Of a stretch of DNA of 64,000 nt, positions 17,301 through 43,614 are shown piece after piece. Every line of letters begins with the position of its first letter. Position 1 is the stretch's first letter. The notes below the pieces were generated by a model. The model was not told where the DNA came from and did not search any database. It saw nothing but the letters and a program-made list of their open reading frames with translations. A program made the position numbers and the translations under genes. This stretch comes from Nitrospira sp. (GTDB lineage: Bacteria; Nitrospirota; Thermodesulfovibrionia; UBA6902): contig JADHUV010000001.1 in NCBI GenBank assembly GCA_016784355.1, positions 29,860 to 93,859 of the forward strand, written 5' to 3'.

Positions 17301-19149
17301 CTGACCAGTAGCCGCCCATATCCGTTATTCTGATCAGGTTGCGGTCATTATCGTAGAGGAAAAAAGCTGAACGGCCATGCGGGTCATTAACGCGATCTAT
17401 AAGGCCGTCATTATTTGAGTCAATCAGGGAAGTGATTTTACCGGTGGCATCTACTATGGAATTGATAACTGCATCACCGTTGTAAGTAAACCTCAATTTC
17501 TGGCCATATTTATCTGATATGCTTGTCAGAAATGGCTGCAGCGAGTCTGTGCCTTGCGGTACGGTATAGGCGTAAATCGTACCATCGGGCAGTGACAGAT
17601 GATAGTGTCGTTCAGCAATTTTATTTAGCGTGTTAATGATGCCAGAAGGTTTTTCATAGGTGCTTTGATCTATCGGGGTAAATACATCTCTTCTGCCGTC
17701 AGGCATGAATATGGTGACGCTTCCGCCTGTATCTTCTACAGCATAAGAGGCGTAACTAAACATCCATTTGTTGCCGAAGGGCTCGTTTCTGGCTATGCCA
17801 GATTGCGAATTATAATTAAGCTGTATATAAACCGGAGGGCCTATGGCCGGAGTATGCCAAAGGGGGATATCTGAAAGGTGCAGGTTCATGTTTATCATAT
17901 TGACGTCCCACTTCGGAGTTCCTTTAGAGCACTCAGTATCGCCGGTTGCTGATGCAAAGCCTGAGGGTTGTCCCAGGTTGCTTTCCGGCCTGGGTGAGCC
18001 GCAGCAGGCGCCGTAGATCTCTTTCATTTCTTCCTGCGTAAGTAAACGTCCGGGTAAATTATCTGACTTAGCGAACACGAGGGCATTACCGTCCCATTCT
18101 CTTTGAAATTCATCCCTGCTCTGGTGATATTGTCGGCCGCTCTGGGCATCATAGAGCTGTAGTTTATTGTTTTCTATATTCTCCAACACCCAGTAATGAC
18201 CTTTACTTTCAATGCCTTTACGATTGATCTGAATGATTGCCGGCAGTGTTATTAAATCCAGATCAGCAAGCTTCAGTTTGAGTCCCTCCATCTGATATCC
18301 GTATTGCAGGGCTATTTGTTGCAGCTCATCAATGCTGTGTCCACTTAAGGATGAAGGTTGTATATCAAGAACCTTACGGGCATCTTCAGGTCTTCCGATA
18401 TCTTGTAAGATACGGGCTAAGGCATCGGTACCACAGGTTAGCATTGAAAGTTCGTCCTGACTGTATCTGGACAGTCTCTGCAGCCAGTGAGCTGCATAAG
18501 TGCGGTGCCTCCAGTCCGGGCTTTCATTTTTAAGATTAGTGAAATGTTTCATCGAACTACTGAAGTCTCCCTGCAGCATCTTCAGCACTCCCAGTCGGCT
18601 CTGTGCCTTATTTAAAAGCATTTTTGAGCCGTAATGTGCGTTCCCCTTATTAAGCGTAATAATATCATTGAAAATTGCTTCCGCTTCTGAGTATCGGCCG
18701 TTATATCTCGCATCACATCCTATATGCAGCATTGCCTCAGAAACCCATGGACTCTCAGGGGTTGCTGTAATATGCTGCCGGAATAATTCTACCGCTATAT
18801 CGTAATTATGCATGTTCCATTGTTGAATAGCTGCTCCGAAGGACCGGTTGATCGCACCATTTTCAACGGCGCTGCCGAGTTTTGAGCGGCCTCCTGCAGG
18901 GCCGGCAGAGGCTGTGGGATAAAGCTGTCCGCCGAGTTGGCCGGCGGCCATTAATTCTATGTTCGAAGGAGTCCTTGAGAGGTCGAGAGGCCTGACTGAA
19001 CGACGGACATCAGGTATATGTCTTTCGGCATGTGAATATTGCATGCTGAAATGCTGGATGAAAAATACGCTGAAAATGAACGCGATAACGCGCAGTAGAT
19101 ATTCGCACGAACCCAATTGCAAAACTGTCCCCTTGTTTAAAGCTGTCAA
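14362..19149 (-). CDS. Rhs/YD-repeat polymorphic toxin with an N-terminal anchor, TPR region, peptidase-C39-like domain, Rhs shell and a 144-aa C-terminal toxin tip
   Basis: 1595 aa with dozens of YD repeats (YDxxGRL/YxYDxxxN types). The core end is YYGYRFYSPALGRWLNRDPLGEAGGMNLYRFVGNNPVNWIDPWGR. The N-terminal region has LTCGTDAL, GHYWVL and LYDAQSG, which resemble a C39 Cys/His/Asp set. Confidence 0.95.
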   Translation of the reverse strand: MTALNKGTVLQLGSCEYLLRVIAFIFSVFFIQHFSMQYSHAERHIPDVRRSVRPLDLSRTPSNIELMAAGQLGGQLYPTASAGPAGGRSKLGSAVENGAINRSFGAAIQQWNMHNYDIAVELFRQHITATPESPWVSEAMLHIGCDARYNGRYSEAEAIFNDIITLNKGNAHYGSKMLLNKAQSRLGVLKMLQGDFSSSMKHFTNLKNESPDWRHRTYAAHWLQRLSRYSQDELSMLTCGTDALARILQDIGRPEDARKVLDIQPSSLSGHSIDELQQIALQYGYQMEGLKLKLADLDLITLPAIIQINRKGIESKGHYWVLENIENNKLQLYDAQSGRQYHQSRDEFQREWDGNALVFAKSDNLPGRLLTQEEMKEIYGACCGSPRPESNLGQPSGFASATGDTECSKGTPKWDVNMINMNLHLSDIPLWHTPAIGPPVYIQLNYNSQSGIARNEPFGNKWMFSYASYAVEDTGGSVTIFMPDGRRDVFTPIDQSTYEKPSGIINTLNKIAERHYHLSLPDGTIYAYTVPQGTDSLQPFLTSISDKYGQKLRFTYNGDAVINSIVDATGKITSLIDSNNDGLIDRVNDPHGRSAFFLYDNDRNLIRITDMGGYWSELSYDDDIYITELRNSDASWLFNIEPSDAINNGADPYPPPGGTMWENYRITVTDPLNGKKEFYYNGDALQSWIINPREYIEYYGPENNNYTHAPKTLYTLSRSYQQGKVIFITSPEGSFLNISYDQESGYVSSVADNHNHISRFTYNSDGTVSAYTEPAGNKITFEYYPDTRNVSTIKYNMQSTPEDDAIVLSSFSYNAMTNAVTAITDRTGNTTELLYNEYGKVLSITEASGSSSEINTSVLYDPLTHWPITLKQNGLESASYIYDNTGRIITKNRDGTALQYSYDNLDRVRQIVYPDNRKISLSYSPCCPWLIESTTDLAGTETEFRYDKLQRLMEVRGPGGAMQYLYDRNNNLEEIRQPGRSVALFKYNLDNRLLSKTYNDGSSVSYAYDTAGIKKSSTNARAISKHYTYDPNHNLKGITYSDNTPNLIFTYDDYNRLTAESNAAGTYAYGYNASGQFSSADGPLDNDKISFNYDIHGRLKELLSETGNGVYFSYDYESAGKRPLGRIFSINSGEETYTYTYAEDTNQINSLSLPNATTTYYQYDDPLHRLTEIRTEDSSNNILNRHAYSYNNFDLISSQTTSAATPPVAYTDGFELSSYNNMNELLSTDDQAEYRYDADGNMTHGYTATGEIMHMTYDAENRLTSTAYTGADNILYKTEYIYGAGNTVTRLKKYENSTLVSDIHITRTGLLPLWERDAINNVTRSYTWGLDMAGGIGGLLNMNENGENYYYHYDGSGNVNTITNSSENIAASYSYDIFGKVNAKSGTLDQHFQFSTKRHDEETGLSYYGYRFYSPALGRWLNRDPLGEAGGMNLYRFVGNNPVNWIDPWGRLAAPWHFGITYAASRNSGRGVWDSTKLAWTAMAVDFSSGSQGENWEATRLHAMAGLLSDGTYQSSQQAIQTTTAYINDRAGGCGSGALSRAAHATQDLATPGHAGAEWHGFGLNWETVKHIYGDVFPSMSTINQAYQNTDGVFK

Positions 19150-19406: not shown

Positions 19407-22400
19407 TTACATTCTATTACTTTTCAGCCTGTCAGCCAGTTCTATCAGGACCTTATCAATCTCAGTCCTTAGCTCATTGTACAGCTCTACGGCATGTTCC
19501 ATGTTATTGGCAAATGCATACTCAGTGTCAGCTGCTTTTTCGCGCAGCACATTGGCCCCTATATTTGCCGCAGCACTCTTAAGAGAGTGGGCCTGCCGGA
19601 TGGTTAGCTCGCTATCTCCATTGTCTAGAGATTGATGCATTATGTCCATTTGCTTTGGCGTATCTTCAATGAAAATTTCCCATAACTCTTTTAATAATTC
19701 TTCATCATGATCGATCCTTTGGAGCACCTCACTGGTGTTGATGGTTGGTGTGGCAGTATTCTCCGGCAGGGCCTCTCCTGAACGTTCGCATATAAGTCTG
19801 TTGATTTCTGCTGTAAGTTCTTCTTTTTTGAAGGGCTTTGTTACACAGCTGCTCATGCCGGCTGCCCTGCACTTTTCAACGTCTTCTTTAAATGCATGGG
19901 CGGTCAGGGCGATAATGGGTATTTCAGAATCAATCTCAGGATCTTCAGAGGCCCGGATGGCCATGGTGGTTTGAATACCATCGAGTTCAGGCATCTGTAT
20001 ATCCATAAGTATGATATCAAATTTATTATTCTTAAGGGCCTCAAGGGCCAGTCTTCCGTTGCCTACGATTGTCAGGAGATAGCCGAATTTTTCCAGTATA
20101 CGTTTTGCCACCTTTTGATTTACAGCGTTATCCTCAGCGATCAGCACAGATATCTGCCTGTTAGGCATGATACCTGAAATTGGCTGTTTTGCAGATATCA
20201 GTTTTTCATCCGCAGCTTCTTCCTGCTTTGTGCCTGCTCCGAAATGTGCTGTGAAATGAAATGTAGTACCCTTACCCTCGATACTTTCTACCCATATAGT
20301 TCCTCCCATCTGGGTAACGAGGCTTCTGCTGATGGTCAGGCCTAGTCCGGTCCCGCCATACTGACGGGTAGTTGAGCCGTCAGCCTGGGTAAAGCTCTTG
20401 AATATATTATCGAGGTTTGAGCTGTTTATCCCTATACCGGTATCAGAGACTGTGAAATGAAGGAAGGTATCATTTCCATCGGCATTATTTTCTGCCTGAT
20501 CAACTCTGACTTTTATGCTTCCCTCTGATGTGAATTTAAGGGCATTGCCTATAAGGTTAGTGATTATCTGTTTCAGACGAAGTTCGTCGCCCATTATCCA
20601 ATCAGGAATATCATAATCGATATCGGCTGTGAGAGAGATGTCTTTAGTTTTGGCCTGCACGCTCAATGTCTTGATCGTTGTATTGACTGTATTGCGAAGG
20701 CTGAATAATTTAGTTTCAAGCTCCAGCTTACCAGCCTCAATCTTTGAGAGGTCAAGGATATCATTCAGGAGTTTCAGAAGTGAATCAGAGGCGCCTTTAA
20801 TCGTTTCAAGGTAATCTCTCTGTTCTTCATCCAGCTCAGTATCAAGCGTCAGATCTGTCATGCCTATGATTGCATTCATCGGCGTGCGAATCTCATGACT
20901 CATATTTGCCAGAAACTCACTTTTGGCCTGATTGGCAGTTTCAGCCTCTGACTTTGCTATATACATCTGCTCACTGGCCAGATTGATTTCTGCGAGCCTG
21001 TCTTCATCAAGGTCTCGAAGCTCAGCTATTTCAAGGAGTTTCTGCTCCAGTTCAAGTCTTTGTATCTCAAGCTGTTCCTCTGCTGTTTTACGATAAGAGA
21101 TATCTTTTGCAATATGGACAGTCCCGGTAATTTCACCCTTACTGTTTTTCATAGGTGATGCGCTCATCTCTATGTACATCTTTAAAGAGGATTCATATAT
21201 GTCTACTGAGTACGGAATATCGCTGTTTATTGCCATAGAATGAGGACAGGGACTATTTTTGCTTTCAGAATTATGAAATAGGGTATAACATTTCTTTCCG
21301 ATCATATCTTCAGGCTTCATGCCGAACTTGTCAGCTAAGGTTTTGTTTACCCCGACAATATTATGCTGAAGGTCATGTATTGATACCATGTCCTGTAGTG
21401 AGTTAAATGTGATTTCCCATTCGTTTGATATATTTCTGATATGATTATCGGCCATTCGGCGAGCGGTGATATCTGTGTCGGCACCTAGCATTCTAAGAGG
21501 TTTGCCTGAATCGTCACGTGTGGTTATCTGCCCTCTGCTCAGTGTCCAACGATAGGATTTCTGTCTTGTAAGAAGTCGGTATTCAAACTCAAAAGTTTCG
21601 CTCTTGTTATCGAAATGTAATTGCAGAGCATTTTCGTGTTCTGACTTGTCATCCGGGTGTATGAGCTGCTCCCAGAAGTCGTGGGTTCCACTTATTTCTT
21701 CTTCTTTATACCCCAGTGACTCATACCAGCGTTTGCTGAAAAAAACCTCATCCGTTAATAGATTCCAGTCCCAGAGTCCATCTTTTGTTGCTTCCATTGC
21801 GAAGCTGAGCTGTTCCTCTTTTTTAAACATGGCCGCTTCATTTTCCTTGTGTTTTACTATGTGAAGCATCATGGGACGGAAGATGAACCCGTAGAGGACA
21901 GGGGAGACAAAAACTATAAGCAGCATGGCACCGATAACAGCCTGCATAACCCAGTGAACGGCTGGTAGATAGCTCATTATAATCATTATTGCGAATTCGG
22001 CTATGAAAAGCGATATAGATATTATTGTAATAAGATATACAGGAGAGAGGTGTAACACTTCAGATGTATTATAGAGATTACTCTTTCGGGCTGCCTGTAT
22101 TAATATGCCGGAAGAAATAATTAACAAAGTCAGTAGTACCCCAAACGAAATGAATGAGATCCTTGTAATAACTTCGCTGATCTTGCCGGCTGCAACCGAG
22201 ATATCTTTAGATACCCCGACTGCACCGGAGAAGGTTCCATTGACAGTAACGGGCAAGTATAAATTCATCAGTTCAATATTAATTGATAAGCCGTCATATG
22301 TAGTGGTAGCTTTATTGAATATGGTGCTGTAGGTATTACCTTTCTGCTGTGCAGGTTCAAAAAATGTCAGGCTTTTTATCTGGCCGATTTCCGCAGGCAT

Positions 22401-22703
22401 GGTTGAGTATATAATCTCCCCTGATATTGAATAGAGCTGTATCTTTAGGAAATTGAAGTCACTCTTAGCATTTTTCATCTTTTCATTGATATCTTCCGGT
22501 AGTGTTTTTTTAGTGAGCTCAGTCTCCTTTAAACCCATGGTATGCAGCATATGGCGTGCAGCTTGAGCAGATGTTTCCTGTATATTATTCACTGCAAGCT
22601 CGCTAAAAATCGGGATTACAAAATAAGTATTTACACTGAAAAAAATTATCGCCGTCATAAGAAAGGCATAAAAGGTGTATTTGATTGAGCTATTAACTCT
22701 CAT
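19407..22703 (-). CDS. Hybrid sensor histidine kinase (TM sensor region, PAS domains, HisKA, HATPase, receiver, HPt)
   Basis: 1098 aa. Motifs: H-box MSHEIRTPMNAIIGM, N-box ITNLIGNALKFT, G-boxes DTGIGI and GGTGLGLTIS, receiver ILMDIQMPELDG ... KPF, and C-terminal HPt HSLKSAAANIG. Confidence 0.9.
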   Translation of the reverse strand: MRVNSSIKYTFYAFLMTAIIFFSVNTYFVIPIFSELAVNNIQETSAQAARHMLHTMGLKETELTKKTLPEDINEKMKNAKSDFNFLKIQLYSISGEIIYSTMPAEIGQIKSLTFFEPAQQKGNTYSTIFNKATTTYDGLSINIELMNLYLPVTVNGTFSGAVGVSKDISVAAGKISEVITRISFISFGVLLTLLIISSGILIQAARKSNLYNTSEVLHLSPVYLITIISISLFIAEFAIMIIMSYLPAVHWVMQAVIGAMLLIVFVSPVLYGFIFRPMMLHIVKHKENEAAMFKKEEQLSFAMEATKDGLWDWNLLTDEVFFSKRWYESLGYKEEEISGTHDFWEQLIHPDDKSEHENALQLHFDNKSETFEFEYRLLTRQKSYRWTLSRGQITTRDDSGKPLRMLGADTDITARRMADNHIRNISNEWEITFNSLQDMVSIHDLQHNIVGVNKTLADKFGMKPEDMIGKKCYTLFHNSESKNSPCPHSMAINSDIPYSVDIYESSLKMYIEMSASPMKNSKGEITGTVHIAKDISYRKTAEEQLEIQRLELEQKLLEIAELRDLDEDRLAEINLASEQMYIAKSEAETANQAKSEFLANMSHEIRTPMNAIIGMTDLTLDTELDEEQRDYLETIKGASDSLLKLLNDILDLSKIEAGKLELETKLFSLRNTVNTTIKTLSVQAKTKDISLTADIDYDIPDWIMGDELRLKQIITNLIGNALKFTSEGSIKVRVDQAENNADGNDTFLHFTVSDTGIGINSSNLDNIFKSFTQADGSTTRQYGGTGLGLTISRSLVTQMGGTIWVESIEGKGTTFHFTAHFGAGTKQEEAADEKLISAKQPISGIMPNRQISVLIAEDNAVNQKVAKRILEKFGYLLTIVGNGRLALEALKNNKFDIILMDIQMPELDGIQTTMAIRASEDPEIDSEIPIIALTAHAFKEDVEKCRAAGMSSCVTKPFKKEELTAEINRLICERSGEALPENTATPTINTSEVLQRIDHDEELLKELWEIFIEDTPKQMDIMHQSLDNGDSELTIRQAHSLKSAAANIGANVLREKAADTEYAFANNMEHAVELYNELRTEIDKVLIELADRLKSNRM

Positions 22704-22729: not shown

Positions 22730-23812
22730 TTATTTTGAACATTGGCTTATAACTTCCTCTGCTATTTTCTTAAGCGGCAGCACGATGTCAACACCGCCAA
22801 GTCTTATTGCCTCTTTAGGCATACCAAATATAACTGATGTAGATTCATCCTGGGATATATTGAAGGAACCTGCCTGTTTCATCTCTAACATTCCTCTTGC
22901 TCCGTCATCTCCCATGCCTGTCATGATGATGCCAATGGCGTTTTTACCGGAATATTTGGCTGCAGATCGGAAAAGCACATCTATTGACGGGCGATGGCGG
23001 CTTACAAGTGGGCCGTCTTTTAGCTCGACATAATAACGGGATCCAGTACGTTTCAGGATCATATGTTGATTGCCAGGTGCAATCAGTACATGGCCTCTGA
23101 TTACGCTGTCATTGTTTTTAGCTTCTTTAATAGAGACCTTGCAAAACGAATCCAGTCTTTTCGCAAAGGATGCGGTGAAGCGTTCCGGCATGTGTTGTAC
23201 TATAACGATCCCCGGCGAATTTACAGGAAGGGCTTTAAGCAATATTTGCAGTGCTTCAGTACCCCCTGTTGATGCACCTATGACTACAATTTTATCGGTT
23301 GTCTGGATTATTGCTTTTGCCTCAGGTTTGGAGATAACTGCATCGGCGTTCAGTTTAGGGGTGGTGGTGAATTCAGGCGTCTTCTTCGCTCTGGAGATTG
23401 CTGCGGACTTTATAGTATCGCATATCAGAACTTTGGACTCATCAAAAAACTTTTCAATCCCAAGTTCCGGTCTTTCAATAATATCTACTGCGCCGTACTC
23501 TACAACCCTTTGTGCAGTATCAGAACGCCTCTCTGAAAGGCTGGAACACAGTATGACAGGTATGGAGTGTTTTAATATGATTTGCTTTAAAATGGGTAAA
23601 CCCTCCATTTCCTGCATCGCAACCTCCAGGGTTATTACGTCTGGGATCGCAAGCTTTATCTTTCTAACCGCCATAAGCGGGTCTGCTGCTGTAATCACCG
23701 TTAACTCGGGATCTGATGAAATAATGTGCTCCAGCGTCTGTCGTACCCTTAATGAGGTATCAACTATGAGCACTGTTATTGTTTTATCTTTTCTACGTTT
23801 ATCTAAGTTCAA
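22730..23812 (-). CDS. cheB: CheB-type protein-glutamate methylesterase with an atypical (non-phosphorylatable) receiver domain
   Basis: 360 aa. The esterase triad contexts are intact: IGASTGGTEAL, VIVQHMPERFT and TGMGDDG. The receiver has VDTS (not DD), TLEVAMQEMEG (Glu at the Asp56 position) and IERP (Arg for the conserved Lys). Confidence 0.85.
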   Translation of the reverse strand: MNLDKRRKDKTITVLIVDTSLRVRQTLEHIISSDPELTVITAADPLMAVRKIKLAIPDVITLEVAMQEMEGLPILKQIILKHSIPVILCSSLSERRSDTAQRVVEYGAVDIIERPELGIEKFFDESKVLICDTIKSAAISRAKKTPEFTTTPKLNADAVISKPEAKAIIQTTDKIVVIGASTGGTEALQILLKALPVNSPGIVIVQHMPERFTASFAKRLDSFCKVSIKEAKNNDSVIRGHVLIAPGNQHMILKRTGSRYYVELKDGPLVSRHRPSIDVLFRSAAKYSGKNAIGIIMTGMGDDGARGMLEMKQAGSFNISQDESTSVIFGMPKEAIRLGGVDIVLPLKKIAEEVISQCSK

Positions 23813-24201: not shown

Positions 24202-25704
24202 TTATAGAGATTCTTCGGTAATACTATGCGTGCTGCTGTTGAGTATTAGCGATTTAAGGCATCTTCCCAGGATAAGGACATCGCTTCGAAATGACCTGGT
24301 AACCGTATAATAGTTCTCGGCGGCTATCCGTTCATCCAGGCTTATATGTCCGCTGTTATCCGCTTCCCATATATGAAAAAGGCCGGAAGGAGTCTGAAAT
24401 CTTGAGGAGGTCCATTCCTTACTGAGACTCTGAAGTTGTACCTCGGACAAAAGTGAGTTGCCGACCATATTAATATCGCCTCTTATGACATGTACAAGCC
24501 CCGGGATTTTTCGCAGGAGTCTGTTGCGGCTGTTGAAAAAATGCAGCATAATTTTTTGAGGCTGAAGGCAGCCGGAGAGGTCTGTGATCTCATAAGCACC
24601 GAAGCGAGGCTCGGTACGGAAGAATTTTTTTGATGGAAATGCAGCATGATAAAGGAAAAGGACCGCAATAAGTGGTGACAGGAGTGCCAGCATCAGTGAA
24701 GCGAGCAGGATGTTGACCAGACGTTCAAATCTCGGGATAAGATTTTTTGTCTCGATATCCCCTATGATGTAATTATCCTTAACATAGGTGTTTACGCGTC
24801 GCGGGACATTGAAAATATAGTTTTTTCTGACAATGGAATCCGTGACCTCTGTGTGAGATCCAATATATGTATCGTCCCATATAATGCTGTTTTTTATCTG
24901 TGCATCCTCATCTACAATTACATTATTGCCTATCACTGAGATATTGCCCAGTGCTGAACGATTCAGGATTTGACAATTGTTGCCAATAACGACTGGAGGC
25001 GATAGATTAACAGATGGATGTATTCTGGTTTTATTCCCTATCCATATGCCCTTATCTGTCTGGTGTCCTGGAAATATTATATTTTGAAACTCTCCATTAA
25101 GCACCCTCGTATTGGCCGTATGATAATCTGCGGGGGAGGCTACGGTTTGTAAGGCATGAGGAGAATAATAGGAGTTTACTTTCAATCGCAGTCCGTCAGG
25201 GCGCGTGATAAGATCGTTCAGAGCCTGATGAGACAGTATATGAGGCAGGGCGGATTCATCATTACTGAGATCATCCTGAATTCTTGTAATAGATTTATTG
25301 TCAGTTGAATTTTGTGCTACTGTGATATCGGCCTCTTCATTGTAGTGGGATCGGATTAGAGCGGATATATCAAGATCAGTAATAATATTGCAGGGTATGC
25401 ATAGCACGGGGCAGTCAAGTCTGGAATATATGTGCTTAAGTGCGGGAATAATGCCGATGTACTCACGTTCCAGGACATATTGAATAGTAACACCCCATCT
25501 GGTGCCTGAGCCGAAATAATTTTCTGTCTCAAAGGGCATATGGTGTTTGACCATTATTATATCTTTGATATTATGACGTACGAGTAATTCTACAAGATGC
25601 TCAGCGATTGGTTTGGTAATGACGGGCAGCAGGTAATCGGAGGTCCAGTCTGTAAGGGGTGAGAGATCTGCAGGTCTGGCAGCAGGCAGTATTACGGCTT
25701 TCAA
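24202..25704 (-). CDS. Fusion protein: nucleotidyltransferase-like domain + left-handed beta-helix + bacterial sugar-transferase-like C-terminal domain (both catalytic signatures degenerate)
   Basis: 500 aa. The N-terminus MKAVILPAARPADLSPLT stands in place of the (L)AGGxGTRLxPLT signature. Hexapeptide repeats occur mid-protein. The C-terminus has a TM helix plus LRKIPGLVHVIRGDINMVGNS, where canonical enzymes have LRxxSxDELPQLxNVLxGDMSLVGPRP. The TTG start overlaps the upstream stop. Confidence 0.7.
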   Translation of the reverse strand: MKAVILPAARPADLSPLTDWTSDYLLPVITKPIAEHLVELLVRHNIKDIIMVKHHMPFETENYFGSGTRWGVTIQYVLEREYIGIIPALKHIYSRLDCPVLCIPCNIITDLDISALIRSHYNEEADITVAQNSTDNKSITRIQDDLSNDESALPHILSHQALNDLITRPDGLRLKVNSYYSPHALQTVASPADYHTANTRVLNGEFQNIIFPGHQTDKGIWIGNKTRIHPSVNLSPPVVIGNNCQILNRSALGNISVIGNNVIVDEDAQIKNSIIWDDTYIGSHTEVTDSIVRKNYIFNVPRRVNTYVKDNYIIGDIETKNLIPRFERLVNILLASLMLALLSPLIAVLFLYHAAFPSKKFFRTEPRFGAYEITDLSGCLQPQKIMLHFFNSRNRLLRKIPGLVHVIRGDINMVGNSLLSEVQLQSLSKEWTSSRFQTPSGLFHIWEADNSGHISLDERIAAENYYTVTRSFRSDVLILGRCLKSLILNSSTHSITEESL

Positions 25705-27260
25705 TTGACTACCTCAAATACCTGCCTGGCAGATGCAAGGTCTTTTGAGATATTGAACAGACGGTTCAGCTTTGTAATATGGAAGACCTGCTGTATATTT
25801 TTATTCAGGGTGCACAAAACACACTTTTTGCCGATAGTAGAAAGGTGTTTTTGAACTCGAAAAAAAAGCACCAGTCCGGAACTGTCTACAAAGTTCAGCT
25901 CGTCAAGGTTCAGTATGCAGTTGCTCATACCTATCTCGTTAATAAGGGAGTTAATATCAAGGGCGGCAATCTGAGCCGCATCCAGTCTGCCTGCCAGTGA
26001 AAGGACTTTCTGGTTATCTTCATTATCCAGACTATAATAAAATGGCGGGATATTGTCTTTTTCATCCAGCAGCGCCATGGCATCATCTATCCTGTCTCTT
26101 GTAATTGCCTTAAATAAGTCCCATGTACGGTTTAGCTCAAAAAAATGTCTGAGGTGAAAATTAATACCTATAAATGAAAGGTTCTTATTGTCACGGGTCA
26201 TTTCACGCCAGACTTCCAGTAGAGATCCCAGTCCTGAGGAATCAATAAATGAAGTATTGCTGAAATCAAAGACTATGTGCCGGGAATTTGATATTTCATT
26301 GTCGATTTTATCAAATACATAGTGCATTGAAACACGATCAAGGCGTTCGGGCATTTTTAGCACTTCGATGGTCTGTCTGGAAGATCTGATGGATAGAGTC
26401 TCATTCTTTTGCGGGGGGGCGATTTTTTTATGACGCAGATTAAAAAGCATGAGTCTCTGGCGGTAATAGAGTATGGACGGCAGCACTATCAGGCCGAACT
26501 TGAAAAATCCTACAAAATATCTTTTCCAGAGTCGTTTGGGATCCTGGCTTATTCTGTAGAGCCATTCCATGCCGGATTTCTGCATCCAAAGAGGAGCACG
26601 CTTTACCTTCCCGTTGATGAAATCAAAGGTCCCTCCTACCCCTATTGATACGGGTACTTTAAGGCGGCTTTTATTTCTCTCATACCAGAGTTCCTGTTTA
26701 GGATTTCCAAATCCAATGAATAGGATATCAGCACCCGACTTGTTAATGTCTTTTATTATCGGGCGGTCTGATTCTTCCATTTCTGCGAGTGCTTCACCCT
26801 CAATCTGCACATAAGGAGATCCTGTGCCGGCTATATGAAGACCTGGGAAGTATTTCGTTAGAGTCCCGGCCGCTTTTAATGCAGAATCTTCGGAGCCGCC
26901 CAGAAAATATATGGACTTACCGCGCTTAACGGCTTCCTCCGCTATCCTTGGTACGAGGTCAGCCCCTGTGACGCGTTCTTTAAGGGGCGTACCAAGGAGT
27001 TTACTGGTCCAGACAATCGGCATGCCGTCAGGTGTCACAAGGTCTGCTCTTCGCAGGATATCCAGCAGTTCTGGATGGCTGGAGTTTTTAAGCCCCCATT
27101 TAAGCGTATTGACTACGAAATCCACGTTTGCTGTGACGACATTAGACGGGATACCTGTAGATTTGAAATCCTCAATCATACTGAAAATCTGACCGATAGT
27201 TTCTTCTTTATTCAGGTTGTCTATGGGTATACCCAGAATAACCACGGTGTTACGGGACAT
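25701..27260 (-). CDS. WecG/TagA/CpsF-family (GT26) glycosyltransferase fused to two C-terminal STAS domains
   Basis: 519 aa. The N-terminal 250 aa are typical of the TagA/WecG family (ILGIPIDNL..., ANVDFVV, ADLVTPDGMPIVW, GTGSPY, FIGFGNPKQE). A hydrophobic helix follows, then two STAS units carrying FIDSSGLGSLL and FVDSSGLVLFF. Confidence 0.85.
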   Translation of the reverse strand: MSRNTVVILGIPIDNLNKEETIGQIFSMIEDFKSTGIPSNVVTANVDFVVNTLKWGLKNSSHPELLDILRRADLVTPDGMPIVWTSKLLGTPLKERVTGADLVPRIAEEAVKRGKSIYFLGGSEDSALKAAGTLTKYFPGLHIAGTGSPYVQIEGEALAEMEESDRPIIKDINKSGADILFIGFGNPKQELWYERNKSRLKVPVSIGVGGTFDFINGKVKRAPLWMQKSGMEWLYRISQDPKRLWKRYFVGFFKFGLIVLPSILYYRQRLMLFNLRHKKIAPPQKNETLSIRSSRQTIEVLKMPERLDRVSMHYVFDKIDNEISNSRHIVFDFSNTSFIDSSGLGSLLEVWREMTRDNKNLSFIGINFHLRHFFELNRTWDLFKAITRDRIDDAMALLDEKDNIPPFYYSLDNEDNQKVLSLAGRLDAAQIAALDINSLINEIGMSNCILNLDELNFVDSSGLVLFFRVQKHLSTIGKKCVLCTLNKNIQQVFHITKLNRLFNISKDLASARQVFEVVN

Positions 27261-28090
27261 TAATAGGCTCCTTTTCCGGTGAGTACTGCCGGTATGGTTT
27301 GCAGTAGTATTTTGATATCGCCCCAGAAGGACTGATTTTCAATATATTTAATGTCAAGACGTACCTGTCCCTTGAAATTGATCTCGCTCCTGCCGCTTAC
27401 CTGCCATATGCAGGTAATGCCCGGAATGGCATCAAGACGTCTGCGATCCGAATATTTATATTCTGCTACCTCACCGGGAACAGGCGGGCGCGGTCCTACA
27501 ACTGACATATCACCCTTCATGACATTCCATAGTTGTGGAAGTTCGTCAATCGAGCTTTTCCTGATGAAGCGTCCTATACGTGTTATTCTGGGATCTTGTT
27601 TGATTTTAAATGTAACTTCCTGGGATTCGTTCATACTCATAAGGTCTTTTTTAAGCTGCTCTGCCTTGATAGACATGGATCTGAATTTATACATCTTAAA
27701 GTGTTTACCCCATTTCCCAACTCTTGTATGGCTGAATAGTACAGGTCCGCCGTCTTCCAGTTTGATTGCAAGGGCAATAATGCTTAGCAGTGGCATCAGT
27801 ATTATCATCATGAGCAGGGAGACTAAGATATCCAGCGAACGTTTGAAAAAATAGGCAGATTCTGTAACGATTGCCCAACTGTATTTTTTATATAGAAAGT
27901 ATAGAGATGCCCTGAGACGGGCCATTTTTGTCCCGCCCCTGGTGTATTTACTGTATAAAGTCTCTAATAATTCTTTGTCCATTAAGGCATCACTTCCTGC
28001 GTTCGTGTAAATATGCATGAATCTGCAAAATTCATGCGAATTGGCGGAGGACGTTTCAATACCTGCCTGCGCTATTATTTGTATCGTCAT
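27260..28090 (-). CDS. Undecaprenyl-phosphate sugar phosphotransferase (priming bacterial sugar transferase, WbaP/PssY-like)
   Basis: KRSLDILVSLLMMIILMPLLSIIALAIKLEDGGPVLFSHTRVGKWGKHFKMYKFRSM, SIDELPQLWNVMKGDMSVVGPRPP and PGITCIWQVSGR are all canonical. The true start may be an internal Met (e.g. MARLRASLYF). Confidence 0.9.
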   Translation of the reverse strand: MTIQIIAQAGIETSSANSHEFCRFMHIYTNAGSDALMDKELLETLYSKYTRGGTKMARLRASLYFLYKKYSWAIVTESAYFFKRSLDILVSLLMMIILMPLLSIIALAIKLEDGGPVLFSHTRVGKWGKHFKMYKFRSMSIKAEQLKKDLMSMNESQEVTFKIKQDPRITRIGRFIRKSSIDELPQLWNVMKGDMSVVGPRPPVPGEVAEYKYSDRRRLDAIPGITCIWQVSGRSEINFKGQVRLDIKYIENQSFWGDIKILLQTIPAVLTGKGAY

Positions 28091-28186: not shown

Positions 28187-29683
28187 CTAGGAGGGCTCAT
28201 CATTATCAAGCGATACATCTCTGAATGGGTTGCGGCCTTCCATCAATATATATATCCCGGCAGAAATGCCTATCCCCAGAATAAATATAATGAACATAAA
28301 GGGGATACTGTAAAGGTGTTCGCTGGTAAGCACAGGTCTCAATAATGAAAAAAGTGCGGCCATGCTCCCACCCGTTAAGAGCACCTGCAGCCAGGGTCGG
28401 GCAACGATTTTAAATGGGAAATGATATATACGCATCAATAGCGCACACTCTATTATACCAACCAGTATGAAGGCTGCAGTCATGGAAATAGCAGCGCCCT
28501 GAAGGCCACCATATCTTATACCCGTTGGCAGGAGCACAACTACCAGGATCAGGCCAGCTGTCATGGAAAGGGTTTCATAGGCGGGCTTACCTCTGGCTAT
28601 AAAGGTTGTACCTGATATCTGACTTATTATGCGGAACATTCCGCCCAGGGTAAACCATGCTACAACTATATAGGACATCTGGTATCTCGGGTCATAAATT
28701 AGACGGATGATTTCATGAGAAAAGAGTACAAGGGCCATGGCTGCAGGTACTGCTGCTGCCAGTAAAAGTGCGAGGGTCCTTTCATATATTCTGATAACGC
28801 GGGGCAGATCTCCTGCTACGCTGCTGACTGCCGGAAGGTATGCCTGAGCCACCACCTGAACACTTATCATGGCAATGATCCCCCCCAGATTAATGCCAAG
28901 CTGATATAGCCCCAGCATTTCCATATTAAGCAGTTTACCGATTAGCAAAATATCAATATTCATGGCCGTCCAGGTGATCATGGTATTGATGAATATGAAT
29001 TTTCCGAAGTGAAACAGTTCTGCTCCTGCCTTTTTATCCCATCTTAAGCGCGGTGAATAAGGCTGTATTATGTATGAACCGATCAGGCGGAAAATTACGA
29101 GAGAGACTGAACCGAATGCAAGGGCATAGACTGATCTATAAGTCAGGGCCAAAATTATAGTTGTTATTATGGTTAACAGGTGAGTCGTGATCTCAAATAT
29201 AACCTGTTTTTCTGTGCGGAAGTTTTTGACCAGCAGTGAGATTGCAGGATTTTCAAAGCCCTCGATAAATAATGAGACGGCCATGATCATCATGATGGTC
29301 TTCAACTCGGGTTGTTCATAAAACCCTGCCAGAGGGGATGCGATTAATAATACAAAACAGGCTAGAAACAGACCCCTGAGAATCGCGATTATCCAGGCGG
29401 CATTTAGAAATTCCGGTTCTGATCCCCTTTGATTCTGTATAATAGCTGTTCTTATGCCGGTGTCTGAAAACAGTTGAATAAGGGTCAGTATGATCGAGGC
29501 CGTGGCCATTATCCCGAATGCCTCTGGAAATAAGATCCGTGTCAGGATTATACTGCTTAAAAAACGCAGAAAAAAACTGCCGAATTTTCCAAATAGGCTC
29601 CAGAAGGCAGCCCTCATGCTTTTGACCTTCAGGGAATGCTCCTCAGGCTTAATAAGTTTTTGAAGCAGGTCTTTAAGATTCAT
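28187..29683 (-). CDS. Wzx-type polysaccharide flippase (MOP/polysaccharide biosynthesis protein family)
   Basis: 498 aa with about 12-14 TM helices. The N-terminal pattern (AFWSLFGKFGSFFLRFLSSIILTRILFPEAFG) is typical of the family. Confidence 0.8.
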   Translation of the reverse strand: MNLKDLLQKLIKPEEHSLKVKSMRAAFWSLFGKFGSFFLRFLSSIILTRILFPEAFGIMATASIILTLIQLFSDTGIRTAIIQNQRGSEPEFLNAAWIIAILRGLFLACFVLLIASPLAGFYEQPELKTIMMIMAVSLFIEGFENPAISLLVKNFRTEKQVIFEITTHLLTIITTIILALTYRSVYALAFGSVSLVIFRLIGSYIIQPYSPRLRWDKKAGAELFHFGKFIFINTMITWTAMNIDILLIGKLLNMEMLGLYQLGINLGGIIAMISVQVVAQAYLPAVSSVAGDLPRVIRIYERTLALLLAAAVPAAMALVLFSHEIIRLIYDPRYQMSYIVVAWFTLGGMFRIISQISGTTFIARGKPAYETLSMTAGLILVVVLLPTGIRYGGLQGAAISMTAAFILVGIIECALLMRIYHFPFKIVARPWLQVLLTGGSMAALFSLLRPVLTSEHLYSIPFMFIIFILGIGISAGIYILMEGRNPFRDVSLDNDEPS

Positions 29684-30890
29684 CCGGCCCGGTTTTGTCT
29701 ATATCTTTAAGTTCGGATTTTCTTTTTGTTCTTTTCCAGGATTGGACCTTTCCCCGCAGTGCAAGGCTCAGGTATATAGGCAGTTTCGATAGGATATAAA
29801 AGGGTGCTGCCAGAAGATATATCCAGACTGAAAGTGGGGTTTTTCTTAAGATCTGTCCTGAAAGTACATAGAAAATCTCAACGGCACAGATAGCAATGAA
29901 AACTGGTGTCCATGCATGGTAGTGTAAAAGTGTCAGGGCAAAAAGGGCAGACTGTATTATCAGAAACAGGCTGAGAGGGGGGGTGATCAGCTCCATGAAT
30001 TCATCAAGGTATTTTATGCTGCCGCTGCCCGCAAATTTTTTAAAAACACACAATGCGTTTTTTTTAAATATCTCCAGCCTGCCGCCTTCCCATCTTTCTC
30101 TTTGAGTTTGCAGCTGCTTTTTCTCTATGGCCATCTCACTTACTACCAACGCATCCGGGTTGTAGTGTATCAGGATTCCGTCATGGAGAAGCTGCAGTGA
30201 AAACTCCAGATCTTCCACTATGGAGTGGGCCGGCCACCCATATTTTTTCAGGATCGGGGTTCTGAAGGCCATGCCGTTACCCTTAAGACCGGCCGTACCG
30301 CCTATAACATTACGACCGGCAGGTCGCAGGTGGTTAAATACATTGAAGGCAGCCGTTGAGATGGCTGTGCGCCAGTTGTCTTCCGGATTTGAGACACCGT
30401 TATACCCCTGAACTACCTGGACGTCCGGATGAGAAAGACTGCTTGCTACCTCGGATAGATAAGACTCAGACATTAAAGCATCAGCATCAATAAGGGCAAC
30501 TATCTGAAATGCCCCGTAAGCCTCAGTATATTGCCGTAGGAACCAGTCAAGGGCCTGCCCCTTTCCGCGATTAGCTGTATCATTGCGCTCAAAGACAGTT
30601 GCGCCAGCGGCTCTTGCAAATTCAGCAGTTCTGTCATCACAGTTGTCAGCGATTACCATGACTGAATAACGGTCTTCGGGGTAGCCGGATTTATAGACCT
30701 GCTGCAGGGTTTTCTCTATCTGCAGTTCTTCATTATGTGCGGGAATAAGAACTGCGATAGCTGGAGGAACAGGAAAAGTCGCGGTTTTTTTATGGAAGAA
30801 AAAGGCTGCAAGGGTTAGCGTGAAAAAATATAATGCTACTGAAACACAGTAAAGAGAAGAAATAATGAAAAGTATATCTATTATAATCAT
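29673..30890 (-). CDS. Membrane-embedded family-2 glycosyltransferase with a processive-type Q(R/Q)xRW motif
   Basis: 405 aa. Motifs: AVLIPAHNEE, VIADNCDD, LIDADA and QRERWEGG (QxxRW-like), with flanking TM helices at both ends. Confidence 0.8.
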   Translation of the reverse strand: MIIIDILFIISSLYCVSVALYFFTLTLAAFFFHKKTATFPVPPAIAVLIPAHNEELQIEKTLQQVYKSGYPEDRYSVMVIADNCDDRTAEFARAAGATVFERNDTANRGKGQALDWFLRQYTEAYGAFQIVALIDADALMSESYLSEVASSLSHPDVQVVQGYNGVSNPEDNWRTAISTAAFNVFNHLRPAGRNVIGGTAGLKGNGMAFRTPILKKYGWPAHSIVEDLEFSLQLLHDGILIHYNPDALVVSEMAIEKKQLQTQRERWEGGRLEIFKKNALCVFKKFAGSGSIKYLDEFMELITPPLSLFLIIQSALFALTLLHYHAWTPVFIAICAVEIFYVLSGQILRKTPLSVWIYLLAAPFYILSKLPIYLSLALRGKVQSWKRTKRKSELKDIDKTGPDES

Positions 30891-30894
30891 GATA

Positions 30895-32970
30895 TTAATT
30901 TGAGCTCACTTCATACATAAAGGCTCTGTCATCACGGTTGAGGGGCAGAACCCAATATTCTCCTGATCTGCTGAGACTGCCTGATTTGCCGGTCTTTCCG
31001 GAGGGCAGAATGGTCCTGTATTTTACTTCTTTGTTGCTGTTTCTTATCAGGATACTGCCGGTAATGATTTCGGACATGATACGGGCGCTGCCACTATACT
31101 TTATCGAGTCTGTCAGCTCAACATCTGAGAGGGAGTGATGGTTGTCTGCTTTAGACGTGATAAAGATAAACAGTTTATCGGCCTTATTTATTGGTGCTGC
31201 ATTGCTTCCGGGTGAGATAACTGCTCCTGCAAAAAATTCATTATCAATTCGGAAAGAGATGTCATTGGTTTTTCTAATATTGCCGCTGCCTGTGCCGACT
31301 GCGGCCTGTGCCGTAGGCGTATCAATAAGTCTATATCCGTCCTGCCAGTCCCAGAATAGCTGCCCGTCCGCTGATTTTACATCTGCTGCCTGAAAGGGCA
31401 TGAGGTTGGTGAGAGGGCTAATCCCGTCATCTTTATTGTTCCAGCTCAGAGAGAGCCTGTGTTGCCAGAGTCCTGTTCTGTAGGCAAGCATATCTTCAGG
31501 CTTGTAATGGGCTGTATATAATTCTTCTTCACTGACTTTCAAGGTTCTGCTTTCGCCAGCTGGCTTTACTGCAGATCTGAAAAGCAGTGCAGCGGCCGGT
31601 AGAAGGGTTATTCTGGCGGGATCTATGACTACATCATTTGGATGGTGCAGAAAAGATTGTACCCATGTATCGTGAGAATAGTCGTAGAGAATTGTTGCAT
31701 TCCAACCCTGATAGGCAGCGATGGCTGCGAACGTAAGAGGGTATTCAGCCCTGTATTCTTTGGGATAGTCCATATTCCATTCGCTGACGACAAAAGGCAT
31801 GCCTTTGACCCTTGCAAAGGACTGACTCTGCAGTGTTGTAGCCGCTTTAAAGGGAGAGGTTCTGAAATCAGCATCTGCGGAATCTCCTTTGACGTAAATA
31901 TGCTGGTCAATAAAATCGGTAGAAGCAAGCGCCGGCAGGTCATAAAGCTGTGATGCCCAGTTTGTACCCGTGACAGGAATTCTTACTCCAAGATCTCTGA
32001 GGAATTGATGCATATCAGTGAAATAATCAATCATTATTTTATTTGCAGCTTTTTTTCCTTCAGGTGTTTTCCAAACCTGACGCGTCTTTTTTTTATTCAG
32101 GTTATTTTCGGCTGCATAGGAATCAAGATAGCTGGTAAACAGTCGGGAAAGGGCAGGGTGCTCAGGGGTATGATCGGGCGTAAGAAAATAATGACTGGTC
32201 AGGTCGTTTTCATTTGTGATGAGAGTGAGTGCAATTGCCGGTTCATTTTTGTATCGAAGCCCTGTATAAGGGTTTATATGATTCCAGATGGCAGCGGCAA
32301 AATCTTTCTGCAATACTATAAGATGCGGGTCAATTATAGTGGCTCCTTTTCCCTGATACGGCAGTGCTGCAGCATTGATGATGCCGTCCCCATCTTTAAA
32401 CTCACGCGAGACAAACAGATCGATATAAATATATATGCCTTCCTGCTTTAATAGAGAGATAAAGTAATCCAGCCTGTCCCAGCTCTCATAATTGAAGTGT
32501 CTGCTGTCGTTATGATTTTTATAATCTATAAGACTCAGAGAATTCCAGGATGCATCCATGTGGTGCAGCCGGACCATATTAAATCCGAGAGCAGCCAGAC
32601 GTTTTGCTATAAGAGGGGCCTCCTGCTTGCTAGGGAAACATGAGGCCGCACTCAGGGCTATTCCCCAGAAACGGGTCTCTGTTCCGTCTTCAAAAATAAA
32701 GCGGTCGCCTTTAATTTCAAGGAAACCGTGTTTTCCTGCCGGCGGGTCATTAAGATAACTCATATCTGCAAAGATAGACTCAGGGGTAAGGGTGCTTTCA
32801 TACCAGTCGTTCTGCAACGTCTCAGGCGACAGTGCATTTTTAGCTGAACTTGCGGCAATCTCCTCTGATAAGAATGAAAAAACAGCAACACAGATCAGGA
32901 TAATGGCTATAAATGAGGTGCCGGACTTCACTGCGGGCTTTATAGAATCAGTGAGATAATAAGGCTTCAT
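30895..32970 (-). CDS. Secreted or anchored glycoside hydrolase, (beta/alpha)8 clan GH-A-like (GH5-type)
   Basis: 691 aa with an N-terminal anchor. FWGIAL...AKRLAALGFNMVRLHHMD and LITNENDL (the NE acid/base context) resemble GH5/GH-A enzymes. The family level is uncertain without an HMM search. Confidence 0.55.
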   Translation of the reverse strand: MKPYYLTDSIKPAVKSGTSFIAIILICVAVFSFLSEEIAASSAKNALSPETLQNDWYESTLTPESIFADMSYLNDPPAGKHGFLEIKGDRFIFEDGTETRFWGIALSAASCFPSKQEAPLIAKRLAALGFNMVRLHHMDASWNSLSLIDYKNHNDSRHFNYESWDRLDYFISLLKQEGIYIYIDLFVSREFKDGDGIINAAALPYQGKGATIIDPHLIVLQKDFAAAIWNHINPYTGLRYKNEPAIALTLITNENDLTSHYFLTPDHTPEHPALSRLFTSYLDSYAAENNLNKKKTRQVWKTPEGKKAANKIMIDYFTDMHQFLRDLGVRIPVTGTNWASQLYDLPALASTDFIDQHIYVKGDSADADFRTSPFKAATTLQSQSFARVKGMPFVVSEWNMDYPKEYRAEYPLTFAAIAAYQGWNATILYDYSHDTWVQSFLHHPNDVVIDPARITLLPAAALLFRSAVKPAGESRTLKVSEEELYTAHYKPEDMLAYRTGLWQHRLSLSWNNKDDGISPLTNLMPFQAADVKSADGQLFWDWQDGYRLIDTPTAQAAVGTGSGNIRKTNDISFRIDNEFFAGAVISPGSNAAPINKADKLFIFITSKADNHHSLSDVELTDSIKYSGSARIMSEIITGSILIRNSNKEVKYRTILPSGKTGKSGSLSRSGEYWVLPLNRDDRAFMYEVSSN

Positions 32971-35557: not shown

Positions 35558-35600
35558 CAGATTAGATCATCATTCGTTTTTTGTAAATATGTTAGTGTCA

Positions 35601-36611
35601 TTATATTATTGATTTTTTGAATGATGCAGCAAAGTTTAAAAGATCATCACTCATGAGTGTAATGGGAAAATTCTGTGCCATTTTCCTGCCTTCCTCTCGT
35701 AAGTCTTCCTTTAGCTCTTTATCAGTTAATATCGTATGTAGACAGTTTGAGAGTTCTTCGATATTACCGTCTTCGGCGATAAGTGCGGTCCGGCCCTGAT
35801 GCATGTGTACTTTTCCGCCTTGGCCTGTATAGCCGATGACGGCGCAACCGCAGGCCATTGCTTCTAGCGGCGGCAGTCCGAAGCCTTCCGGATACCCGAT
35901 AGCCATAAATATATCAGCCTGTTTATAAAATTCTATTATCTGTGATTGAGTGTATTTGTTAGCAAGCTCTATAAACTCGTTTTCTTTTCTAGTTTTCATA
36001 TCAAGTTTTTTGATTGCCAGACGAGCCTCATTCACATGTCTTCGGTTAAGATAAAGAACTGTCCCAGGTTTGCGTCTGGAGGCATCTGGCCTGAACAGGT
36101 TAAGATCAATCCCGTTGGTAATAACATGAGAAGGGAGTTCTGATTTTTCTTTCATAAATTCCCTTATGAACTCTGAACAGCATAAAATTCCGGTGAACCC
36201 AAAGTCCTCATATCTTCGGCCTGCTCCTGTACCGATGTCTACAAGTGACCATGCCTGTACAAAGGCAAATTTATGCCTGCAATTAAATTGAGATGCCGCA
36301 GAAGGCATGATCTCCGGGCATATCAGGACATCATCAGAACGAATTATTGATAAGGATTCCTGTGCGCTGAGGGGCTGGATATTATGGGAAAACCAGTCGA
36401 TAGTGAACTCGCCAAGGTGTATTACATGGGCTTCGTAACCGTTATCTCTTAGTATTTCACATTGCTGGTATATAACCTTTACTCCGCCGGACGGTAGCTG
36501 CTTATGCTTTCGGAAGACTCGCCTGTGCCAGTATGTCAGGTGAGATTCACCATCAAAACGTATGGTGGCTTCAGCCGGAATAATATAGAAAAAGCGGGGT
36601 TTGTAGGTCAT
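35601..36611 (-). CDS. GT-B fold glycosyltransferase (family 4/1)
   Basis: 336 aa with the motif IGYPEGFGLPPLEAMACGCAVIGY. Confidence 0.75.
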   Translation of the reverse strand: MTYKPRFFYIIPAEATIRFDGESHLTYWHRRVFRKHKQLPSGGVKVIYQQCEILRDNGYEAHVIHLGEFTIDWFSHNIQPLSAQESLSIIRSDDVLICPEIMPSAASQFNCRHKFAFVQAWSLVDIGTGAGRRYEDFGFTGILCCSEFIREFMKEKSELPSHVITNGIDLNLFRPDASRRKPGTVLYLNRRHVNEARLAIKKLDMKTRKENEFIELANKYTQSQIIEFYKQADIFMAIGYPEGFGLPPLEAMACGCAVIGYTGQGGKVHMHQGRTALIAEDGNIEELSNCLHTILTDKELKEDLREEGRKMAQNFPITLMSDDLLNFAASFKKSII

Positions 36612-36633
36612 AATGTTAAGGCGGCGTATGCTT

Positions 36634-38826: not shown

Positions 38827-38829
38827 AGT

Positions 38830-40941: not shown

Positions 40942-40992
40942 GGCTAGTTAAATAAGATGTGAAATCTTTCAGTGATTCTGACCGGGGGACTA

Positions 40993-43612: not shown

Positions 43613-43614
43613 GT

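Follow-up and report, generated by a model that had tools for sequence, protein, structure and literature searches.

We propose here that the minus-strand gene at 25701-27260 of a 64,000-nucleotide stretch of Nitrospira sp. DNA (assembly GCA_016784355.1, contig JADHUV010000001.1, positions 29,860 to 93,859; hereafter the window) encodes a polysaccharide glycosyltransferase of family GT26 that is controlled by a partner switch through two STAS domains fused to its C-terminus. We regard this as the best explanation of the fusion and put its probability at about 0.6; polymer synthesis would then probably be switched on and off directly at the enzyme. The proposal draws on the domains of the 519-residue product, on the partner-switch genes found in the same gene array, on the recurrence of these genes beside the fusion gene in other genomes, and on a recently described cyanobacterial counterpart.

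The gene begins with ATG, and the same call was made by an independent gene caller in public assemblies, such as the metagenome-assembled genome (MAG) GCA_014382155.1. Pfam finds Glyco_tran_WecG at residues 72-248 (E=1e-64), with 217.8 bits for PF03808 against a cut-off of 27.4, followed by two stretches of STAS (PF01740; 83.4 bits, E=1e-23) and two of STAS_2 (E=5.5e-14), the best of these STAS/STAS_2 stretches being 301-376 and 414-511. Among the NCBIfam models, TIGR00696 (152 against a cut-off of 69) and TIGR00377 (78.7 against 53.45) are both passed, which is support at the superfamily level only; none of the equivalog models is reached (EpsA 161 against 500, TarA 124 against 350, WecG 92 against 323), and NCBIfam holds no curated model for a GT26-STAS fusion. 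In a sequence search of the PDB, full-length TagA (7MPK) aligns with residues 7-258 (E=8e-42), the Haliangium anti-sigma antagonist 4HYL with 291-397, and SpoIIAA (1TH8) with 414-513. An AlphaFold2 model built on 32 homologues (mean predicted local distance difference test score 80, predicted template modelling (TM) score 0.69) agrees with this: by Foldseek, its parts match the TagA/TarA structures 5WB4, 5WFG, 7MPK and 7N41 with TM-scores of 0.87-0.91, and its STAS parts match SpoIIAA and RsbV structures at ~0.83. An earlier, sequence-only reading of this DNA had assigned the first ~250 residues to a GT26 domain and the remainder to two complete STAS units, and profile and structure comparisons bear out both assignments. 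Our literature searches found no publication on a fusion of GT26/WecG/TagA with STAS, which the databases know by automatic names only (for example, JGI's 'WecB/TagA/CpsF family protein/anti-anti-sigma factor').

The catalytic domain (residues 1-247; 26520-27260, minus strand) has the GT-E fold of the WecG/TagA/CpsF family. Like TagA/TarA of wall teichoic acid synthesis and WecG of enterobacterial common antigen synthesis, it resembles 5WB4 and 7MPK (TM ~0.9), carries the Thr, Asp-Gly, Arg and Gln positions of that family, and is encoded right after a priming transferase. T43, D78, R96 and Q189 are kept in 79-81 of 81 family sequences, D78 aligning with the DG motif of TagA; this Asp corresponds to the TagA catalytic base, and the Thr, Arg and Gln positions to further conserved catalytic positions of TagA. 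Because these positions are invariant across the homologues, the enzymes look active rather than like relics. A further likeness to TagA/TarA and WecG is a set of three C-terminal helices that serve as a peripheral membrane tether. Whereas TagA and WecG end after these helices (~240-250 residues), the fusion protein runs on for another 250 residues with its two STAS domains.

The link between the two halves of the protein is a hydrophobic C-terminal helix at residues 248-277 (26430-26519, minus strand), of which residues 248-266 read YFVGFFKFGLIVLPSILYY (Kyte-Doolittle mean 1.53). The sequence-only reading had noted a hydrophobic segment between the two halves. The segment is there, but it is no inserted element: the 7MPK alignment, which extends to residue 258, identifies it as the membrane-association region with which GT26 proteins normally end, positionally homologous to the C-terminal helices of TagA and WecG. 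WecG is held peripherally on the membrane through three such helices (PMC9804384), and the AlphaFold2 model likewise has three, the last of which (~241-277) continues toward the STAS linker. Within the segment, K254 is conserved in 77 and P261 in 74 of the 81 family members; in homologues, Lys, Glu or Asp is frequent at 250-251 and Arg or His at 264-266, so that only ~10-12 uncharged residues remain, and both flanks are strongly basic. Together, the conserved K254 and P261, the charged positions and the basic flanks fit an anchor, with the catalytic and STAS domains cytoplasmic and accessible to a kinase. The segment is thus probably an in-plane, interfacial or re-entrant anchor and not a membrane span.

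STAS domain 1 covers residues ~289-401 (26058-26396) and STAS domain 2 residues ~407-516 (25713-26042), both on the minus strand and both delimited from Pfam and PDB matches, with the AlphaFold2 model as well for domain 1. The phosphorylatable-type motifs claimed for them earlier are present: FIDSSGLGSLL (D340-S341; serine codon 26238-26240) in the first, FVDSSGLVLFF (D459-S460; codon 25881-25883) in the second and FIDSSGLGVLV (S55) in a free STAS protein encoded in the same array. All three serines align exactly with Ser58 of Bacillus subtilis SpoIIAA, the residue that is phosphorylated there. The two fused serines differ in their conservation across the family. Of the 79 sequences with a second STAS domain, 72 show Ser or Thr at the S460 position; the S341 position is Ser in only 45 of 81, being degenerate (mostly Leu) in the Halieaceae and Desulfatiglans clades and at least 90% conserved in the close Desulfobacterota clade. 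Of the 81 members, 77 retain one or both. S460 being the more widely conserved, STAS domain 2 looks like the ancestral regulatory site; in the window protein both S341 and S460 are candidates for phosphorylation.

The fusion gene lies in an array of 16 minus-strand genes running from 47334 down to 24202, separated by gaps of at most 96 bp or overlapping, which holds Wzx/Wzy-type polysaccharide genes with regulators at its head. A scan of the array for terminators and promoters gave counts at the level of shuffled sequence, and no obvious internal terminator. At the head is a hybrid histidine kinase with PAS, HisKA, HATPase, three REC and Hpt domains (44011-47334), which is presumed to be the input to the REC-PP2C protein encoded further on. 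It is followed by the free single-domain STAS protein (43615-43965; 116 residues, S55 in DSSGLG with its codon at 43801-43803; Pfam, NCBIfam and the SpoIIAA alignment), and by an RsbW/SpoIIAB-like serine kinase of the HATPase_c_2 family (43157-43612; 151 residues) whose ATP-binding motifs, an N-box (E54-A-x-x-N58-x-x-x-H62) and glycine boxes, are intact. Next comes a REC-PP2C (SpoIIE-family) phosphatase response regulator (41982-43160; 392 residues) with the architecture of HenR and the usual acidic motifs of its family (SGD, DVMGHG, SDG and DDVS). That a free STAS protein, an RsbW-like kinase and a REC-PP2C phosphatase share an array with the fusion gene, as had been noted from the sequence, is upheld by Pfam (41982-43965), and so is the reported absence of a sigma factor: no sigma-70-family domain occurs in ~40 open reading frames (ORFs) scanned in the 64-kb window, most of those of at least 100 residues. 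With no sigma factor among these ORFs as its partner, the switch would be non-canonical at best.

The fusion gene is also tied closely to its neighbours. Its start codon overlaps the stop codon of a priming phosphoglycosyl transferase (PGT) gene (TAATG, with AGGAG 8 nt upstream) and its stop codon overlaps the start of the next gene (TTGA), which indicates translational coupling on both sides. The upstream partner is a Bac_transf protein of 276 residues (27260-28090; TIGR03025); the downstream one is a 500-residue product (24202-25704) in which an NTP_transferase domain and a left-handed beta-helix are followed by a PGT-like C-terminal region.

To judge from its sequences, the GT26-STAS fusion is an old, conserved family. 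A protein search returned 1524 relatives, of which the best 120 are all full-length (~515-530 residues, 47-56% identity), each with matches to the three Pfam families; where an organism is named among these 120, it belongs to the Desulfobacterota. A survey of species-representative genomes gave 316 matches, which need not all be fusions, since the search patterns sit in the GT26 domain; in the best 80 loci, which were inspected, two STAS domains lie within the GT26 ORF in 77. These 80 loci come from Desulfobacterota (Desulfobacter vibrioformis DSM 8776, Syntrophobacter, Desulfatiglandales) and Geobacteraceae, Gammaproteobacteria (Marichromatium bheemlicum, Congregibacter, Halieaceae), Calditrichota, Nitrospinaceae, Chlamydiales/Parachlamydiaceae, Lentisphaerae, Phycisphaerales and Bacteriovoracaceae. 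A PGT gene is directly upstream of the fusion gene in ~24 of the 80 and an NTP_transferase/beta-helix/PGT-like gene directly downstream in ~23; the latter is also present in a Chlamydiales locus (L055).

The STAS pair appears to belong to GT26 in particular. In an exhaustive search with the tandem STAS region alone as query, GT26 was present in 93 of the 150 best 50%-identity clusters. The others are short proteins, namely fragments or free-standing STAS proteins with one or two domains, and GT26 was the sole glycosyltransferase family found on tandem STAS among these 150. Since tandem STAS of this type occurs almost only with GT26, we consider it specifically a GT26 appendage. A domain census of the tandem-STAS matches (Pfam on 10 hand-picked proteins of odd length, plus a local hidden Markov model census) saw only two extra domains, NUDIX and metallophosphoesterase. 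They are exemplified by P0153, a GT26-STAS-STAS-NUDIX protein of 696 residues, and P0170, a metallophosphoesterase-GT26-STAS-STAS protein of 835 residues.

The linkage of kinase and phosphatase genes to the fusion gene is non-random. We sought free STAS, RsbW-like kinase and REC-PP2C as a trio, using the window proteins and then profiles iterated on the loci, with flanks of +/-10 kb. The full trio was found in 13 of the 80 loci, which represent at least four phyla; in all 13 its genes lie no more than 4 kb from the fusion gene, and in 12 they share its strand. In the control, none of 80 metagenome loci centred on generic RsbW-like genes had a GT26 gene, although 32 of them span at least 8 kb; the control kinases are only 28-42% identical (a generic pattern), and this negative control says nothing about orthologues.

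Pfam confirmed the trio calls and revealed fused states of the regulators: REC-PP2C-kinase (L059), REC-PAS-PP2C-kinase (L077) and REC-PP2C-kinase-STAS (L055). In D. vibrioformis (L008) the gene order is histidine kinase, Hpt, REC-PP2C, RsbW, STAS, PGT, GT26-STAS and NTP-transferase; a Chlamydiales MAG has REC-PP2C-RsbW-STAS followed by PGT, NTP-transferase and GT26-STAS. In two such Chlamydiales/Parachlamydiaceae MAGs (L055, 5663-7753, and L056) the regulators form one protein of 697 residues, encoded directly upstream of PGT, NTP-transferase and GT26-STAS-STAS. The window's free STAS protein is 57% identical to that of L008 and 49% to that of a Syntrophobacter MAG (L009), and the fusion proteins are 51% and 48% identical, respectively. 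As the two sets of identities track each other, the window's regulators are the same module, split from the PGT/GT26 core only by inserted polysaccharide genes. With regard to the candidate sites, both serines are present in 9 of the 13 trio-linked loci, only S460 in 3 and neither in 1.

The closest precedent is All4160 of Anabaena sp. PCC 7120 (Harada, Matsuoka & Ehira, Mol Microbiol 2026), in which an N-terminal STAS domain is joined to Bac_transf (PMC13555669). Ser74 of All4160 is phosphorylated by the RsbW-like Alr3423 and the protein is reactivated by the REC-SpoIIE phosphatase HenR; an S74A variant bypasses henR (PMC13555669). The two systems share a STAS domain on an early lipid-linked-sugar transferase of a Wzx/Wzy-type pathway, an RsbW-type kinase with a REC-SpoIIE/PP2C phosphatase, and no sigma factor; regulation acts at the enzyme in All4160 and would do so here too. 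They differ in the enzyme, which here is the second-step GT26 and not the priming Bac_transf, and in having two C-terminal STAS domains instead of one at the N-terminus; the neighbouring Bac_transf protein (27260-28090) has no STAS domain, unlike All4160. With another transferase family and the opposite domain order, the fusion is analogous and not homologous to All4160. Whereas the Anabaena genes are dispersed, those of the window form one operon, with a free STAS protein and a hybrid kinase added. Synechocystis XssP has the All4160 architecture, and the All4160 authors describe STAS-transferase fusions as rare outside cyanobacteria and the strategy as lineage-specific (PMC13555669). The All4160 type is described there as largely cyanobacterial; GT26-STAS occurs in Desulfobacterota, Gammaproteobacteria, Chlamydiales, Calditrichota, Planctomycetota and others.

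The sequence-only reading had also seen in the STAS tail a possible target of the partner switch. Comparison supports a functional link between the fusion and the partner-switch genes, through the 13 trio loci and the likeness of the free STAS proteins, and All4160 is a direct experimental precedent for the mechanism, which leaves this part of the claim partly supported; its novelty is weakened, as the concept is no longer new after the 2026 paper on All4160, and the serines are unequally conserved.

The gene set also recalls the syp locus of Vibrio fischeri, a polysaccharide locus with a free STAS protein (SypA), a serine kinase, a REC-PP2C protein, a hybrid kinase (SypF) and no sigma factor, in which control acts below the level of transcription. 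SypE joins an RsbW-like kinase to REC-PP2C in the order kinase-REC-PP2C, as opposed to the REC-PP2C-kinase order of the fused relatives L059, L055 and L077, and the syp locus lacks a STAS-bearing enzyme. The target of SypA is not known (PMC8256260, PMC11112999), and in 2024 it was still described as acting 'at an unknown level' (PMC11112999); on this point the literature of 2021 and 2024 agrees with the earlier reading. In the manner of a Rosetta stone, the fusion may hint at the kind of target that SypA has. The SpoIIAA/SpoIIAB/SpoIIE and RsbV/RsbW/RsbU switches of B. subtilis likewise combine a STAS protein, an RsbW-type kinase and a PP2C phosphatase, and their phospho-serine occupies the equivalent position. 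Their output is the release of a sigma factor; the ORFs scanned here include none, and the additional STAS domains belong to an enzyme.

How might such a switch work? The fusion protein would be an active, peripherally membrane-bound GT26 enzyme that adds the second sugar to the undecaprenyl-diphosphate-linked primer made by the PGT encoded upstream, and its anchor helix would lead into two cytoplasmic SpoIIAA-type STAS domains that form the receiving end of the operon's partner switch. The PAS hybrid kinase would pass phosphate through Hpt to the REC domain of the PP2C phosphatase, and this phosphatase and the RsbW-like kinase would together set the phosphorylation or occupancy of S341 and/or S460 and of S55 in the free STAS protein. 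By analogy with All4160, phosphorylation or kinase binding would turn the enzyme OFF and dephosphorylation would turn it ON. TagA-type enzymes require a C-terminal appendage at the membrane for a complete active site, and the likely lever would be this appendage, which in these enzymes closes over the active site. The free STAS protein would most likely compete with the enzyme-borne STAS domains for the kinase, the enzyme taking the sigma factor's place. The domains, their conserved residues and the conservation of the fusion and of its gene linkage are observed; which protein phosphorylates which, whether the effect is positive or negative, and what the free STAS protein does are points that we infer.

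Several observations weigh against partner-switch control of the enzyme. The full trio was not seen within +/-10 kb in 67 of the 80 loci; the window's own trio lies 15 kb from the fusion gene, beyond such a flank, which makes this absence uninformative. In 36 of 81 homologues S341 has given way to another residue, mostly Leu, S460 has become Asn or Gly in one Desulfatiglandales/Desulfobacteraceae subclade, and the trio-linked Chlamydiales homologue L055 has neither serine (Leu and Asn in their place). The RsbW-like protein could have an unlinked sigma partner elsewhere in the genome. Finally, a single-span topology of residues 248-266 would put the STAS domains in the periplasm. A true transmembrane helix of this kind was considered and is unlikely: the TagA tail aligns with the segment, K254 and P261 lie at its centre, its uncharged residues are few, its flanks are basic, and WecG is peripheral. 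The same question of topology is posed for All4160 in a preprint by the Anabaena authors.

The serine-less but trio-linked L055 keeps alive an alternative in which the kinase binds without phosphorylating. The fused STAS domains would be pseudo-substrate docking sites, the RsbW-like protein would inhibit GT26 by binding, and only the free STAS protein would cycle through phosphorylation, its unphosphorylated form removing the kinase from an enzyme that acts as the 'sigma'. We judge this unlikely, although it accounts for several facts: every linked module has a third STAS domain, free or kinase-fused, beyond the enzyme's two, one serine is lost in many homologues and both in L055 with its adjacent REC-PP2C-RsbW-STAS, and Ser-to-Ala STAS variants bind the kinase more tightly (PMC13555669). 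However, both DSSG motifs are intact in the window protein and its close relatives, with S341 strongly held in the Desulfobacterota clade, and this conservation is hard to reconcile with serines that are never phosphorylated; moreover, the fused STAS domain of All4160 is itself a kinase substrate.

Less probable still is that the tandem STAS is a structural module independent of phosphorylation (for dimerisation, for scaffolding to Wzx, Wzc or PGT, or for nucleotide or lipid binding as in SLC26 or MlaB) and that the partner-switch genes regulate some other component of the cluster. The STAS domains of SLC26/SulP and MlaB do function without phosphorylation, NCBIfam gives weak sub-threshold matches to MlaB and DauA, the trio was undetected within the flanks of most loci, and STAS domain 1 is degenerate in Halieaceae. 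Yet the best structure and sequence matches are to SpoIIAA and RsbV and not to transporter STAS domains, the D-S-S/T-G motif persists in at least one domain of 77 of the 81 members, and the linkage to kinase and phosphatase is non-random. Least probable of all, and in our view very doubtful, is that the fused STAS domains are a sink or decoy tuning a switch whose output lies elsewhere (a diguanylate cyclase, a sigma factor encoded at a distance, or a SypA-like action of the free STAS protein on another protein) while GT26 activity goes unregulated: sigma factors are the classical partners of RsbW-like proteins, diguanylate cyclases are the targets of STAS proteins of the HsbA, SiaC and BgrV types, and our view of the genome is 64 kb only, but a decoy has no reason to stay so long attached to one enzyme family, tandem STAS being found almost only on GT26, and the trio recurs directly beside PGT and GT26-STAS in distant phyla.

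Beyond control of the enzyme by its STAS domains, we tentatively suggest, as a possibility that we rate somewhat below even odds, a 'regulated initiation cassette' shared horizontally across phyla, in which a glycosyltransferase replaces the sigma factor in a true partner switch. Its members would be REC-PP2C, the RsbW-like kinase, the free STAS protein, the priming PGT, GT26-tandem STAS and a nucleoside diphosphate-sugar enzyme; the STAS domains on the enzyme would serve as binding or phosphorylation sites for the kinase, with the free STAS protein as a competitor.

The other genes of the array (28187-41997, minus strand) complete the Wzx/Wzy set: GT2, GT2 with a Wza-like part, Wzc-like, GT4, Wzy, GT4, a 691-residue protein of no assigned family, GT2 and Wzx. 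The second of these (38830-40941, minus strand) is a 703-residue ORF in which GT2 (residues 1-330, with hydrophobic helices at 240-320) is in frame with a Wza-like Poly_export+SLBB region that opens at M337 with a lipoprotein-type signal peptide of its own (MKARLSSIALLLCLVALATISC). In D. vibrioformis (L008) each part has its own gene, and the two genes do not adjoin; the single ORF here may reflect a real fusion, an internal start or the loss of a stop codon. At the other end of the array, the PGT-like region of the 24202-25704 product has a segment resembling a re-entrant helix at residues ~325-355 and, judged by the PglC motifs, appears to read Arg-Lys at the position of the catalytic Asp-Glu dyad, which would make it a possible pseudo-PGT serving as a membrane tether. 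Sub-threshold NCBIfam matches of several cluster proteins to XrtA/PEP-CTERM systems hint at an exosortase-linked exopolysaccharide system; elsewhere in the window are a PEP-CTERM-tagged protein (6148-6795, plus strand) and a 1015-residue thrombospondin-type-3/PKD repeat protein (8360-11407, minus strand).

Outside the array, after a gap of 389 bp, lie genes for a CheB-type REC-methylesterase (22730-23812, minus strand), with no other chemotaxis genes nearby, and a second PAS hybrid histidine kinase with Hpt (19407-22703, minus strand). Further on is a 1595-residue RHS-repeat/YD-shell protein with an N-terminal TPR region and a Peptidase_C39 domain (14362-19149, minus strand), followed by several small ORFs lacking a family match, possibly a toxin-immunity arrangement. 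On the opposite side, ~10 kb from the array head with pyruvate:ferredoxin oxidoreductase genes between, a sigma-54-dependent response regulator (57685-59103, plus strand) with the REC-AAA-HTH architecture of SypG adjoins a hybrid histidine kinase with Hpt (59160-61574, minus strand).

Control of bacterial exopolysaccharide is mostly transcriptional, or runs through cyclic di-GMP or tyrosine kinases. The first experimental demonstration that a pathway enzyme is controlled directly by serine phosphorylation or a partner switch dates from 2026; it concerned a single priming transferase of cyanobacteria, and its authors took the strategy to be lineage-specific. The GT26-STAS family appears to be the same logic built independently on a second enzyme class, with two STAS domains and in many phyla, and its breadth contradicts the lineage-specific view. 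Because cultured organisms carry it (D. vibrioformis, M. bheemlicum DSM 18632 and Congregibacter, the last with no trio linked to its fusion gene), its generality is directly testable. TagA-type enzymes depend on their C-terminal helix for activation at the membrane, and since the STAS domains are attached to this helix, they also offer a handle on how GT-E enzymes are switched. More broadly, the earliest lipid-linked steps become a concrete target class for free STAS regulators such as SypA. If the cassette reading is true, then together with the cyanobacterial STAS-PGT fusions it would imply that orphan STAS regulators of polysaccharide loci, SypA included, generally act on the first two lipid-linked steps, and would overturn the view that such control is specific to cyanobacteria.

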